Assembly (NCBI GenBank): GCA_051961435.1
Contig: JBQCDH010000027.1
Span: 32,535 to 96,534, forward strand
Direction: 5' to 3'
Length of the DNA stretch: 64,000 nucleotides
Origin: Solirubrobacterales bacterium
Lineage (GTDB): Bacteria; Actinomycetota; Thermoleophilia; Solirubrobacterales; 70-9
Positions within the stretch are counted from its first letter, which is position 1; the number at the start of each line of letters is the position of its first letter. The notes beneath the pieces were generated by a model, which saw only the letters and a program-made list of their open reading frames with translations, did not search any database and was not told the origin of the DNA. Below are positions 6,499-12,284 of the stretch, in pieces. The position numbers and the translations under genes were made by a program.

Positions 6499-6522
6499 TT
6501 GCCGTACACCTTGCCCCTGGGG
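6499..6522 (+). repeat. phased TTGCCG / TTGCCCCTGGGG pair (12-nt spacing), arm-site-like, just outside the tRNA fragment
   Basis: cacCTTGCCCCtGGG at 6507-6522 is nearly identical to 12115-12129. A second TTGCC lies 12 nt upstream. Confidence 0.45.
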
Positions 6523-6565
6523 CCTTTCGCACCCCTCTGTCTGTGCCCCCAGGAAATGCGAAAAC

Positions 6566-6602
6566 GGGGCGGGATGCGAACCCGCGACCTTCGGGTTATG
6601 AG
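6566..6602 (-). repeat. 3'-part fragment of tRNA-fMet (att-like direct repeat, not a functional tRNA)
   Basis: ggggcgggatGcgaacccgcgaccttcgggttatgag matches 12216-12252 at 36/37 positions. The flanking sequence cannot form an anticodon stem, D arm or acceptor stem. Confidence 0.8.
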
Positions 6603-6720
6603 ACTGATCTGCTCACTCGGCTGGACTACGTGGGGCTAGAGTTCAAGCCGAATTCGCGGGATCGAACTACGTGGAGATCGGCTGGAATCTGTGGGGCATG
6701 TTGCCCCATTCGTTGCCCCA
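6600..6720 (+). repeat. arm-region repeat copy 1 (tcggctggactacg ... ctacgtggagatcggctggaatctgtggggc ... TTGCCCCAttcgTTGCCCCA)
   Basis: 14/14 identity between 6617-6630 and 7697-7710. 6667-6697 equals 7738-7767 apart from a 1-nt indel. Ends in two TTGCCCCA 8-mers 12 nt apart (6701, 6713). Confidence 0.75.
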
Positions 6721-7008
6721 GCAGATCGTGGCCGAGAACATACAATCCTCGAGATGGCCAAGGATCCCTGGAAAGGCGCCGATCCCCAGCCCGGTGACTT
6801 CGACGCCGAGCTGGACCAGGCCAAGGTCGAGATCCACGAGGGCAACCCCGGCGCAAAGCTGTCGATCCTCAGCCGCCGAGTCAGCCGAGCGACGGAGATT
6901 CGGGCCTTGCTGCGTCACGCCCGCCCCGATGGAGGCAACGCCGCCGAGCGGGTGAAGCGGGCACGGCCTCGCAGCACGCGCGACTGAGACCTTCAGCCTC
7001 TTGTCGGG

Positions 7009-7422
7009 TCAGGAGAGCTCGGCCGGCGTGACGACGAATCCCAGCCAGTCCGTACCCCGACGCAGTCTGCTGTCGAGGGTGACGAGGCGACAGCCTTCGG
7101 CCCGCGCAAGCGCTACGTACTCGGCGTCGTAGGTCTTCGCCCAGCCAAATTCCTCGGCCACCTCCCAGGCCGCCGTAGCGAGACCCTCTGGACGTTGCTC
7201 GCCGATGGACAGCTTGTCCGACAGGAAGCGTTGCAGCGCAAGCTCCGCCAGCGCGTTCGAGATTTCGCCACGGAAGGCCATCTCGTGAAGCGCCGAGGGA
7301 ACCTCGCTCCAAAGAAGCGGCGGCGCGATCAGCTGACCGCCACGGTCCAGGTCGGCGCCGGCCTGCTCGCCGATCCTGTCGAGCGAGAGCTCGACCACCA
7401 AGCTCGCATCTACGACCAGCAC
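7009..7422 (-). CDS. vapC: type II toxin VapC (PIN-domain ribonuclease)
   Basis: 137 aa. MLVVDASLVVE N-terminal acidic motif, a further conserved acidic position (TYDAEYVALA). Preceded by a small antitoxin ORF 2 nt upstream. Confidence 0.8.
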   Translation of the reverse strand: MLVVDASLVVELSLDRIGEQAGADLDRGGQLIAPPLLWSEVPSALHEMAFRGEISNALAELALQRFLSDKLSIGEQRPEGLATAAWEVAEEFGWAKTYDAEYVALARAEGCRLVTLDSRLRRGTDWLGFVVTPAELS

Positions 7423-7424
7423 GC

Positions 7425-7625
7425 TCAGTGAGCTTCGCGGGAGCGCCGAACCGCAGCGGCGACGTTGGGCATCGGCTCACCGGTCAGCGTCTCCCCCCAC
7501 CCCGCCGGCAGCGGTGCCATCTCCGGCTCCTCAGCAGGCCCGGTGGAAACGACGATCCGCGCACGCGCAGCCTCGGCCTCATCAAGGTCGAGGATCTCGC
7601 GCAGCAGCTTCTCCTTCGCGGTCAC
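7425..7625 (-). CDS. type II antitoxin (VapB-like) partner of VapC
   Basis: 66-aa ORF immediately upstream of vapC, with size and position typical of an antitoxin. No strong motif recognised. Confidence 0.6.
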   Translation of the reverse strand: MTAKEKLLREILDLDEAEAARARIVVSTGPAEEPEMAPLPAGWGETLTGEPMPNVAAAVRRSREAH

Positions 7626-7675
7626 AGTTCAAGAGTACCGCCCGCACCCGCGTCTATTGAGAGCGCTCACGCCGA

Positions 7676-7790
7676 GACCTCTGCCAACGCACTCGATCGG
7701 CTGGACTACGGTCCAACCGGAATCCCGTGAGATTGAGCTACGTGGAGATCGGCTGGATCTGTGGGGCCAATCGCCCACTCGTTGCTCAGA
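7676..7790 (+). repeat. arm-region repeat copy 2 (diverged duplicate of 6600-6720, without the tRNA part)
   Basis: Shares the tcggctggactacg and ctacgtggagatcggctgga-tctgtggggc blocks. Its TTGCCCCA pair is degenerate (tcgccca / ttgctca). Confidence 0.7.
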
Positions 7791-7800
7791 CTAGGAGGGG

Positions 7801-7854
7801 TTGGCGAAACGATTGGCGAAAGTCTTGACCCGCATCGCTGATCCTCCGTAGGTT
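7801..7854 (+). promoter_or_regulatory. candidate operator plus promoter: TTGGCGAAA direct repeat (7801, 7813) abutting TTGACC-18 nt-TAGGTT
   Basis: Two identical 9-mers 12 nt apart lie immediately upstream of a -35-like TTGACC (7825-7830) and a -10-like TAGGTT (7849-7854). They are placed ahead of the wHTH/XRE gene pair. Confidence 0.3.
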
Positions 7855-10440: not shown

Positions 10441-10912
10441 CGCCCCCCGCCGCATCTATTGGGACGCGAACGTGCCCCTCTCATTTCTCAATGGCTTGCC
10501 CGACCGGGTTCCGACTATCGAAGAGTTGTTCAAGCAGGCTCGGGCGGAAGAGATCGAGTTGCTGACCTCTTCCGTCAGCCGGGTCGAGGTCGCGTTCGCC
10601 AAGAGCGAGAAGGAGAGCGGATCGCTGGACGAGGGTGCCGAGGAAGCAATCGAGGCGTTCTGGGCTCCCGGCTCTCCGCTTAAAACGGTCGAGTTCTACG
10701 ACCTGATCGCGGACAACGCGAAGGCGTTAATCCGGCAGGGGATTGAGCAGGGCTGGGGTGGCTTGAAGCCGATGGACGCAATCCACATCGCGACGGCTCA
10801 ACGTATGGGCGCCTCCGAGATGCACTCCTACGACGACCGCGTAAAGAAGTGGTCGGGCAAGCTCGGGTTTCCGATTACTGATCCCCAGACCGCTCAGGGC
10901 GTCCTCGGTTAG
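10433..10912 (+). CDS. PIN-domain protein (putative ribonuclease/toxin)
   Basis: 159 aa. Acidic quartet pattern IYWDANV, SRVEV, PMDAIHIATA, SYDDR. Confidence 0.75.
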   Translation: MPDAPRRIYWDANVPLSFLNGLPDRVPTIEELFKQARAEEIELLTSSVSRVEVAFAKSEKESGSLDEGAEEAIEAFWAPGSPLKTVEFYDLIADNAKALIRQGIEQGWGGLKPMDAIHIATAQRMGASEMHSYDDRVKKWSGKLGFPITDPQTAQGVLG

Positions 10913-10936
10913 GAGCCGGAGAAGCTGGCCAGCGCC

Positions 10937-11251
10937 TTAGATCGGCCCCTCGGTCGGTGGCTGCTCTCGGGGGCTGATCTCCTCGGAGGCGGCGTTGTCG
11001 AGGTCGTACGCCTCGACGGTCAAGCCCTCCTCGGTCATCCACCGGATGATTTCCTCCAAGCGCCTGCCCGCGTCGTGCAGAGAGCCTGGGATGCTGAATT
11101 TGATCCGTGCTTCGTGCTTCTCGGCCATCGGAACCAGCGTAGCGACTCCGGTTTTTCGGCCTCGACCGAGGCTGCTTCTGTCATAGCCCCGGCCGAGGCT
11201 TTGAGAACTATGCGCTGCCGAGTCCTCCCCAGTCAGTGCGCCTGGCGACAA
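10937..11251 (-). CDS. hypothetical protein (possibly only the 63-aa version starting at ATG 11128)
   Basis: ORF only, no motif and no clear RBS. Confidence 0.3.
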   Translation of the reverse strand: MSPGALTGEDSAAHSSQSLGRGYDRSSLGRGRKTGVATLVPMAEKHEARIKFSIPGSLHDAGRRLEEIIRWMTEEGLTVEAYDLDNAASEEISPREQPPTEGPI

Positions 11252-11594
11252 GAACGAATGACGCCAAGGCCAGCATCAAACCGAGGGCTGCGATCAGCAT
11301 CTCTACTTCGTCTGCATTCATGCATCGACGGTAGCGCCACTCGCGCCGATCTTCTACTTCCTGGCCGGAAGCCACGTTGTTATTCGTGTTGATGACCACG
11401 CTTTCCGTGCTGCTGCTGACCACAATGCCGCTGGATCTGTCCCCGGCCTGTTGCTGGCAATGGGGTAGAACCAGCCCGAACAGGAGGTATCCGTGAAATC
11501 ACCGACCCGGCAAACCCGCATGGCTATTGAGCCTGCGAGTTTCGCCAATCCCTCCTAGCTAGGCCTCAACAGCCTGAACCGAACATCCAGACGC

Positions 11595-12008
11595 TCAATT
11601 AGGTTCGGGTCGCTTGAACAGCCTGAGCGACTCCCAAACCTCCTTGTCTGAGAGTCCGCTGGAGCGGCGGGCGATCAACTCGGGAGCAAAATGGATCATT
11701 TGTTGCCGCTGCTGCCAACTAGTGAGTAGTTCATAAGTTCGCGCTGCAGCTCGCGCAGCCGACTCAAGAGTCGTTGCGGCGAGCACGTCGATCATGAGGG
11801 AAATCCAGCCATGCTCCGAGCAAGCCAGGCCAGCGCAGTCCGCGTCGTCAAGCGGCGCACCTAGCTTCAATCGCAGCAACGCTCGCGCTGCCGGGTCCGC
11901 GTCCTCGGGGTGGAGTAGATCCTCGTTGCCGTCAGATACCCACTCGCCGCGCTCGTCCCTCGCGCCCTTAGGGTGGTCCTGCATGGGAAGCCTGCCTTCC
12001 TGTGCCAC
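11595..12008 (-). CDS. hypothetical protein
   Basis: 137-aa ORF with plausible composition, no recognisable domain, GC lower than the core. Confidence 0.4.
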   Translation of the reverse strand: MAQEGRLPMQDHPKGARDERGEWVSDGNEDLLHPEDADPAARALLRLKLGAPLDDADCAGLACSEHGWISLMIDVLAATTLESAARAAARTYELLTSWQQRQQMIHFAPELIARRSSGLSDKEVWESLRLFKRPEPN

Positions 12009-12117
12009 GCCCCCGGCTGCACCAACAGCGCGGGGGCACTTTTGCGATTTCGGCGGCGACCGTAGGTGGACCGGAGGCCCGTTTCAAGGGCCGGAATCGA
12101 CCTCTCTCGGACCTCAC

Positions 12118-12141
12118 CTTGCCCCAGGGCTTGCCCCAGGG
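12118..12141 (+). repeat. perfect tandem cTTGCCCCAGGG x2 (arm-site-like)
   Basis: Two identical 12-mers, with the same 8-mer and the same 12-nt phase as 6701-6720. Lies about 75 nt from the tRNA-fMet 3' end. Confidence 0.6.
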
Positions 12142-12171
12142 ACGATTTTGAACCCCTTTGTCTACACTCCT

Positions 12172-12199
12172 AGAAAGACAAAACCCCGCATTTGCGGGG
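12172..12199 (-). terminator. intrinsic terminator downstream of tRNA-fMet
   Basis: On the minus strand: CCCCGCA-AA-TGCGGGG hairpin followed by TTTTGTCTTTCT, starting 12 nt after the tRNA 3' end. Confidence 0.6.
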
Positions 12200-12210
12200 C
12201 TTTCGTGAAA

Positions 12211-12284
12211 TAGCGGGGGCGGGATTCGAACCCGCGACCTTCGGGTTATGAGCCCGACGAGCTACCTGGCTGCTCCACCCCGCG
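12211..12284 (-). tRNA. initiator tRNA-fMet (anticodon CAT)
   Basis: CGCGGGGTGGAGCAGCCAGGTAGCTCGTCGGGCTCATAACCCGAAGGTCGCGGGTTCGAATCCCGCCCCCGCTA. Near-identical layout to bacterial initiator tRNA: C1 mismatch, three G-C pairs in the anticodon stem. CCA is not encoded. Confidence 0.9.

Follow-up and report, generated by a model that had tools for sequence, protein, structure and literature searches.

We analysed a 64,000-nucleotide window of a Solirubrobacterales bacterium (contig JBQCDH010000027.1, positions 32,535 to 96,534, of assembly GCA_051961435.1), in which an islet lacking an integrase gene lies between an initiator tRNA gene and a displaced copy of that gene's 3' part. Coordinates below are those of the window. 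We read the islet (6566–12284), with a probability of roughly 85%, as a non-autonomous remnant resembling a cis-mobilizable element (CIME) and belonging to a family of small tyrosine-integrase islands that is widespread among uncultured soil Solirubrobacterales.

The tRNA gene, its displaced fragment and the two arms

The intact gene for initiator tRNA-Met(CAT) occupies 12211–12284 on the minus strand, a single call made by both ARAGORN and Rfam. Its sequence bears the marks of an initiator (tRNA-fMet), namely a C1xU72 mismatch and three G:C pairs that close the anticodon stem (GGG/CCC), and it starts with CGCGGGG and ends with CCCCGCTA. The portion running from the anticodon loop to the 3' strand of the acceptor stem (12216–12252, the attL core) recurs in the same orientation at 6566–6602 (minus strand, the attR core) with 36 of 37 positions matching, as an initial annotation made from the sequence alone had reported; a repeat search extends the alignment to 39 matches in 42 positions (6566–6607 versus 12216–12257). 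The 5' edge of the anticodon loop is the precise limit of the 37-nt match. The displaced fragment is without the last five nucleotides of the tRNA, its sole mismatch is an A-to-C change at position 58 of the T-loop, and neither ARAGORN nor Rfam calls a tRNA there. The Islander definition of a tRNA island asks first for an intact tRNA gene (tDNA) and a directly oriented, cognate 3' fragment, with the island on the 3' side of the tRNA, which is the arrangement seen here; its second part, an integrase inside the island, has no counterpart in this islet.

The tRNA-proximal arm (P', 11985–12210, plus strand) is homologous to the proximal arms of congeners and of a sibling element elsewhere in the genome, described below. 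It contains a conserved imperfect hairpin (12004–12039), a terminator-like hairpin (12184–12203) and, inside the tRNA end, two direct boxes TTGCCCCA (12119–12126 and 12131–12138, plus strand), the nearer of which is 72 nt from the 3' end of the tRNA. The distal arm (P, 6603–6725, plus strand) shares 86% identity over 106 nt with its counterpart in the sibling and 93% identity with a junction in the congener G019. Its own pair of TTGCCCCA boxes, inside the fragment end, lies at 6701–6708 and 6713–6720; its offsets of +103 and +115 relative to the core anchor are the same as in all other junctions. Both tandem pairs were found where the initial annotation had placed them; an additional inverted box in the distal arm, TGGGGCAT at 6692–6699, is absent from that account. 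A second, decayed copy of the distal arm (repeat family D16) is present at 7690–7790 on the plus strand, with its boxes degraded to ATCGCCCA and TTGCTCAG.

These arms bear on the simplest alternative, in which the 37-nt match would be due to chance or to local duplication of a degenerate tRNA gene, with no mobile element involved. Such an origin could account for the bare repeat only. It is refuted by the flanks, both of which carry, at fixed distances, arms with homologues in the sibling and at dozens of loci in congeners, and we dismiss it with near certainty.

Another tRNA-fMet 3' fragment, with no intact tRNA close by, occurs on contig C30 (L010:5940–6200) and carries the same A58C change in the T-loop. 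Ahead of it come the same terminator hairpin and a different phased pair (TTGGTACCC twice, with an 11-nt phase), and behind it is a distal arm of the TTGCCCCA type. This contig has one more distal arm 7 kb away (L010:13300–13370), beside a degenerate tRNA-like stretch.

No recombinase other than a DDE transposase was recognised by Pfam among the open reading frames (ORFs) between the repeats, and tblastn detected no remnant of the sibling integrase in window positions 1–14000. The eight PF00589 matches of the genome all lie on contigs other than that of the window, and a PF00239 search found no serine recombinase in the whole genome. These searches bear out the earlier claim that no integrase lies between the repeats. 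Two stubs of conserved end genes are present in the islet. At the fragment end, an excisionase-like stub (6751–6846, plus strand, within an ORF at 6691–6987) matches residues 61–95 of the 255-aa HTH_17 protein of the sibling (60% identity, E 3e-10, tblastn), with the helix-turn-helix (HTH) part missing. Adjoining the tRNA is a 137-aa ORF (11595–12008, minus strand), where a match to a conserved small winged-HTH gene covers only the first 12 codons (11949–11984; tblastn and alignment). Neither PHROGs nor Pfam yielded a family for this ORF or for the orphan ORFs of 135, 257 and 98 aa.

Integrase-bearing relatives and the phased boxes

The sibling element, 7.9 kb in length, is located on contig C22, where it adjoins a tRNA-Arg(ACG) gene. 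Its ends are marked by phased pairs, and its far end repeats a 47-nt 3' fragment of tRNA-Arg(ACG). Both of its arms are homologous to those of the window, and the proximal-arm match spans the start codon of the small gene, the hairpin and the box pair. This homology to an element that has an integrase supports the earlier proposal that the islet is a decayed tRNA-integrating element. The sibling encodes a 403-aa tyrosine integrase (Phage_integrase and SAM-like domains), and its 255-aa HTH_17 protein matches the excisionases of PHROG 66. On the tRNA side it encodes a small winged-HTH-like protein and an HTH_20 protein, and its cargo comprises GmrSD, a HEPN protein, Dcm and Vsr. For the small gene beside the tRNA, a search of a protein atlas gave just a winged-HTH-like lead.

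At least nine contigs carry copies of the small winged-HTH gene, and several of these copies have an HTH partner. On contig C18 (L011:6100–8600), an unusually long tRNA-Pro(GGG) call (96 nt) is followed by the same conserved hairpin, a copy of the small gene (62% identity) and a larger tyrosine integrase (545-aa frame). This locus is probably another type of island that has the regulatory module in common with the present family.

We scanned one genome per species for relatives of the sibling integrase and obtained matches of 63–93% identity. The clade is represented at 79 loci, all in metagenome-assembled genomes named Solirubrobacterales or given a broader or related actinobacterial label. 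Where a tRNA gene was in range, it was tRNA-Arg(ACG) at 36 loci and tRNA-Met(CAT) at four. Integrases with about 73% identity or more are mostly associated with tRNA-Arg, and those with 63–74% are associated with tRNA-fMet wherever the tRNA is visible. The integrase of the fMet-type element in G015, which lies beside tRNA-fMet, is 68% identical to that of the sibling, and motifs matching the catalytic residues can be read from the alignment in both. Two integrase subclades share an arm motif and target either tRNA-Arg or tRNA-fMet. Within a sample of 61 genomes of the genus, every integrase at least 64% identical to that of the sibling falls inside a segment bounded by phased pairs. The initial annotation had raised the prospect of a cognate integrase elsewhere in the genome; a clade member does exist on C22, but it belongs to the tRNA-Arg subclade and not to the fMet subclade.

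The excisionase-like piece retained in the window stub is present in 18 of the 79 integrase-bearing loci and the small winged-HTH gene in only 12, while defence cargo is represented by Dcm in 28 and Vsr in 21. At the tRNA end of the intact fMet-type element of G015 (L031:11482–13320), one 612-aa frame contains at least four HTH_3 domains; the corresponding place in the second array element of G015 and in G023 holds several separate HTH_3 genes. Actinomycete integrative conjugative elements (AICEs) are recognised by a replication gene together with an FtsK-like transfer gene, and no match to either was seen in the tRNA-Arg sibling or the G015 fMet element. Membership among the AICEs or the tycheposons was accordingly rejected, as these two intact members, the ones examined, have no recognisable replication or transfer module.

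The phased pairs conform to the pattern TTGCCCCW-N4-TTGCCCCW and are not common genome-wide, the 2.8-Mb genome containing only four copies, two in the window and two on C22. Across the 61 genomes of the genus there are 124 matches in 39 genomes, compared with none in any of the 61 for the reversed pattern, which served as control. A pair's position is either 69–73 nt from a tRNA 3' end or some 100 nt from a tRNA fragment. The spacers within the pairs come in two flavours, one per arm: AGGNN in the proximal arm and ATT(T/C)(G/C) in the distal arm. Relative to the core, the proximal pair is positioned at -108 and -96 (±1) and the distal pair at +103 and +115 in all extracted junctions except a decayed outer arm in the window, and this spacing is identical for tRNA-fMet and tRNA-Arg elements. 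The box nearest to the 3' end of the tRNA is 69–73 nt away in 39 of 40 integrase-bearing loci, and in tandem junctions the distal pair is separated from the next proximal pair by 230–233 nt.

The boxes are a repeated motif found on both arms, apart from the core, with conserved distance and orientation, and they co-occur with a single integrase clade. Because of these fixed core-relative positions and this co-occurrence, we read them as putative arm-type sites that serve a single integrase clade, with the core target varying between its subclades. Comparison thus supports the arm-like role that was first suggested for the pairs, and the integrase would be predicted to bind them. Arm-type sites for the integrase are found on both attP arms of lambda, L5 and pSAM2. 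As in a lambda-type attP, short repeated boxes stand apart from the core on both arms, at about 70–115 nt from it, and the integrase has an additional N-terminal region before its core-binding and catalytic domains. The present family differs in the box itself (TTGCCCCA), in the strict 12-nt phasing of the pairs and in the extra inverted box on one arm, and binding here is putative.

The TTGCCCCA pairs might instead act as operators for a regulator or directionality factor that the element encodes, for example the small winged-HTH protein or the HTH_17 protein. In intact elements the start of the small winged-HTH-like gene is about 130 nt away from the proximal pair, and the HTH_17 gene is near the distal pair; the boxes on the distal arm are palindromic, as is typical of operators of dimeric HTH proteins, and Pfam recognises no named arm-binding domain in residues 1–90 of the sibling integrase. 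However, in all copies the boxes flank the core on either side at distances that do not vary, as arm-type sites do, and they are kept in islets that have lost both HTH genes. They also track the integrase clade, whereas the winged-HTH gene accompanies it in so few loci, and the two integrase subclades appear by eye to be alike over most of N-terminal residues 19–47. On this evidence an operator function is unlikely.

The islet interior, tandem arrays and the restriction-modification block

Beside the distal arm, the islet contains a VapBC-like toxin-antitoxin pair (7009–7625, minus strand) composed of a PIN toxin (7009–7422, Pfam PIN) and a 66-aa partner (7425–7625). The pair has 95% amino-acid identity to one in G015 that likewise lies beside a distal arm. 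In the window this pair is bracketed by the two copies of the distal arm; the G015 counterpart has no second copy.

Two thirds of the islet interior consists of an IS5-type transposon of 3760 bp (7795–11554), with 16-nt terminal inverted repeats that match at 15 of 16 positions, as read from the sequence, and a CTAG target duplication (7791–7794 and 11555–11558). Its ends were identified solely through a contig from an independent soil metagenome (X2, depth 20.6), whose strain is near-identical to the window (8 differences over 5.5 kb). In this contig 7790 is followed directly by 11555, with four letters shared at the joint, so that 3764 nt are skipped, corresponding to the 3760-bp unit plus the 4-bp duplication. 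No inverted repeats were found tight around the transposase ORF (8300–8480 versus 9480–9720). The assignment to the IS5 family follows from the DDE_Tnp_1 transposase, the terminal inverted repeats, the 4-bp duplication and the precise empty site in X2. The transposon carries a small winged-HTH gene (7932–8206, plus strand), an HTH_3 gene (8207–8422, plus strand, Pfam), the DDE transposase (8394–9533, minus strand, DDE_Tnp_1/DUF772), a 257-aa ORF (9667–10440, plus strand) and a PIN gene (10433–10912, plus strand, Pfam). The toxin-antitoxin genes, HTH regulators, transposase and orphans listed for the interior in the initial annotation are therefore present, but the transposase is not a lone gene, being part of a transposon that holds most of the interior genes. 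Prior to this insertion the islet was about 1.85 kb long and already without an integrase.

Plain insertion sequences (ISs) of the IS5 family measure about 1.2–1.5 kb, and transporter ISs are likewise known. The transposon resembles IS5-family ISs in its DDE_Tnp_1 transposase with a DUF772 N-terminal domain, its short inverted repeats and its CTAG duplication. It differs from a plain IS in its length of 3.76 kb with two passenger gene pairs, and its inverted repeats are common to a multi-copy IS. One TTGGCGAAA direct repeat upstream of the winged-HTH gene belongs to the left inverted repeat. The same terminal repeat of 17–20 nt, after CTA, recurs on C4, C27, C34 and C35, 120–150 nt from the contig ends, and also at C40:5647–5666, C23:38055 and C33:57770. 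These copies carry a different interior, which indicates a related multi-copy IS, and this IS is the apparent cause of assembly breaks at several contig ends.

The locus is polymorphic among relatives. The tRNA-fMet genes of G007, G008 and G010 have no arm of this family; G023, the closest congener, has the same proximal arm with different genes behind it, and the X2 strain is without the transposon. As to an empty site at tRNA-fMet, three congeners do without the family arm, but no shared empty attB flank can be defined because their tRNA 3' flanks are unrelated. Many congeners have one to six extra tRNA-fMet fragments. Junctions composed of proximal arm, fragment and distal arm are expected under accretion at one tRNA gene and are seen repeatedly in congeners, with three in G015 over 46 kb, two in G019 and others in G016, G006 and elsewhere. 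Counting by hand, we found about 13 pair-bounded segments in the genus with a clade integrase (one of them frameshifted) and about 19 without, and a PF00589 search confirmed the absence of an integrase in G006, G015, G016 and G019.

A junction of the same type is found in the window at 6440–6725. On its outer side, adjacent to the fragment, is a decayed proximal arm (6440–6565, plus strand) with the boxes TTGCCGTA (6499–6506) and TTGCCCCT (6511–6518). The third phased pair that had been noted outside the fragment is thus borne out as a decayed pair that keeps its 12-nt phase. About 30 nt of this arm have been deleted, including the terminator hairpin, and its boxes are at -78 and -66 rather than at -108 and -96 as in other junctions. 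Alignment of the outer arm with the inner proximal arm gives z = 6.8, a score reached by none of 2000 shuffles, and matches to proximal arms of G015 have E values of 1e-7 to 1e-8.

Past the decayed junction lies a type III restriction-modification (R-M) operon (1462–6083, minus strand) that consists of res (1462–3960, Pfam ResIII) and mod (3957–6083, Pfam N6_N4_Mtase) and is also present in the X2 strain. Between the operon and the fragment, on the same strand, is a 135-aa ORF (6102–6509) that starts in the decayed outer arm and matches no Pfam or PHROGs family. The initial annotation regarded the R-M block as a second element accreted at the same tRNA. The outer proximal arm supports this idea in part, since such junctions are standard in congener arrays, but no far end was found to complete it. 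We consider the operon to be the probable cargo of an older accreted element. It is also conceivable, if somewhat doubtful, that the outer arm is the sole relic of the older element and that the R-M genes arrived otherwise. Neither a distal arm nor a second fragment occurs beyond the R-M block on the contig of the window; none of the 79 integrase-bearing loci contains res, mod or the 135-aa ORF; the variable region runs about 8 kb further through unrelated accessory genes (an ars operon, a glycosyltransferase, a CobQ-like gene); and the RibD_C gene beside res is 90–93% identical in three congeners that have other surroundings. Against a separate arrival, the operon starts 19 nt past the ORF rooted in the outer arm, on the same strand and with similarly low G+C, and restriction or defence cargo is typical of the family, as the Dcm and Vsr counts and the GmrSD and HEPN proteins of the sibling illustrate.

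Base composition, which had been proposed as a check, is 58–66% G+C across 1200–12300, below the 70–76% of the flanks. The variable region extends over about 19 kb, beyond the start of the window, and synteny with congeners returns at a cupin gene about 7 kb before it. Its outer part (L034:12744–20000 plus window 1–1409, equivalent to contig C27:25278–33943) includes an ars operon encoding a MIP channel, ArsR and a low-molecular-weight phosphatase-type ArsC, 83% identical to copies found elsewhere in congeners, together with genes for a GT4 glycosyltransferase, a lipoprotein and a CobQ-like amidotransferase. The last, at the start of the window, was rejected as a conserved left border, being absent from five congeners. 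On the other side of the islet, a low-G+C stretch (57–65%) that follows tRNA-Leu(TAA) at 15315–17000 may be another small island. The ARAGORN calls for tRNA-Pro (17863–17945) and tRNA-Ala (21437–21517) have odd lengths and odd anticodon positions.

Origin of the islet and its place among integrative elements

CIMEs were defined for the ICESt1-related islands of Streptococcus thermophilus, for which a sequence of integration, decay to a CIME and further integration was described (PMC5704250). The islet has the properties of such an element. It keeps both attL and attR, with cores matching at 36 of 37 positions and boxes at the canonical distances; its genes for integration and transfer have been lost; and arm homology together with the two end-gene stubs points to derivation from an autonomous relative. 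The likeness extends to the tandem position with a relative at the 3' end of the target gene and to the proposed origin by deletion from an autonomous relative followed by accretion. Unlike a CIME, the islet stems from a parent family without recognisable conjugation or mobilisation genes, and is hence not a derivative of an integrative conjugative or integrative mobilizable element, and its host belongs to an uncultured lineage of Thermoleophilia.

In the model that we favour, intact members of the family would use the anticodon loop of either tRNA-fMet or tRNA-Arg(ACG) as their site of recombination. Through its proximal arm, the element would supply a replacement 3' half of the tRNA, a terminator and a TTGCCCCA pair, while the distal arm would bring the second pair and the inverted box, and the displaced 3' half would remain at the far end. 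Upon circularisation, the core with an arm on either side would form an attP of about 300 bp, in which the boxes would serve as integrase arm-type sites. A later integration into the regenerated tRNA would displace the whole proximal arm. At the present locus, the older element would be the type III R-M block, which would since have lost its far end, and the islet would have arrived after it, pushing away its proximal arm (6440–6602). The islet would have kept both att sites while losing the integrase, the excisionase-like gene and the small winged-HTH gene, and the 3.76-kb transposon would have entered after those losses. This order of events, the direction of derivation and the present immobility of the islet are inferred.

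Several observations weigh against this account. The R-M block has no closing distal arm or second tRNA fragment, and its res and mod genes are in none of the 79 integrase-bearing loci. The 3' flanks of the tRNA in G007, G008 and G010 are unrelated both to each other and to the window. The evidence for the arm-type role of the boxes is comparative throughout. Long neutral decay would not be expected to leave both att sites and all four inner boxes intact, as they are here, and, given about 19 segments without an integrase to about 13 with one, some integrase-less islets may be kept mobile in trans.

The islet might accordingly be a working satellite, with arms under selection, that is excised and reintegrated in trans by the tRNA-Arg enzyme of C22 or by an incoming fMet-type element. 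The core repeat is identical across the anticodon-loop overlap, and the inner boxes are all perfect and at canonical distances. Integrase-less segments outnumber those with an integrase in the hand count, the Arg and fMet subclades have the same arm boxes, the two tRNAs are alike on the 3' side of the anticodon stem, and mobilisation of CIMEs in cis and in trans is documented (PMC5704250). Yet the genome, which is 94% complete, has just an integrase of the Arg subclade, 68% identical to the enzyme of the fMet subclade; the excisionase-like gene is reduced to a stub; and decay is evident in both the outer arm and the internal arm copy. Among the contigs of four metagenome runs (X1–X4), none joins 6565 to 12253 or 12210 to 6603, although assembled contigs cannot reveal rare events. 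We judge a working satellite to be improbable beside a CIME-like remnant. A still bolder proposal, which we hold to be quite improbable, is that the integrase-less islets bounded by arms make up a standing pool of cassettes, chiefly with restriction, defence and toxin-antitoxin genes, that family integrases shuffle in trans. Each internal junction of proximal arm, core and distal arm is structurally a full attP. If such a pool existed, the arrays at tRNA-fMet and tRNA-Arg would act as a tRNA-anchored, integron-like store served by a few integrase-bearing members.

As a genome feature, the tRNA-fMet islet is of a well-known kind and involves no new mechanism. Tandem arrays at one tDNA and anticodon-centred attP sites have been described (PMC4383910), the anticodon-loop sublocation being from Williams 2002 as cited there. 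Like the Islander tRNA islands, the islet has an intact tDNA with a direct displaced 3' fragment and a crossover at the anticodon loop, and in both cases the element regenerates the tRNA and tandem arrays form at one tDNA. Islander, however, demands an integrase per island and would filter out this islet along with most array members in the genus. The tycheposons of Prochlorococcus are elements at tRNA genes whose successive integrations leave partial tRNAs and degenerate remnants (bioRxiv 10.1101/2020.12.28.424599). They are likewise small cargo elements with the older ones pushed deeper into the island, but the two intact members examined from the present family have no recognisable replication module, and the integrase clade and the host phylum differ.

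Taken alone, the window locus is ordinary, a decayed island in a tandem array that has been disrupted by a transposon. The literature searched seems to contain no description of the island family, of its box signature or of its host group, and almost no mobile elements have been characterised from uncultured soil Solirubrobacterales. The 12-nt phased TTGCCCCA pairs provide a clean signature of the family at a fixed distance from the tRNA. This signature finds autonomous and integrase-less members alike, including those that integrase-based island finders discard. The two subclades, with the same arm sites and different tRNA targets, constitute a convenient natural pair for studying how core specificity changes when recognition of the arms is retained.

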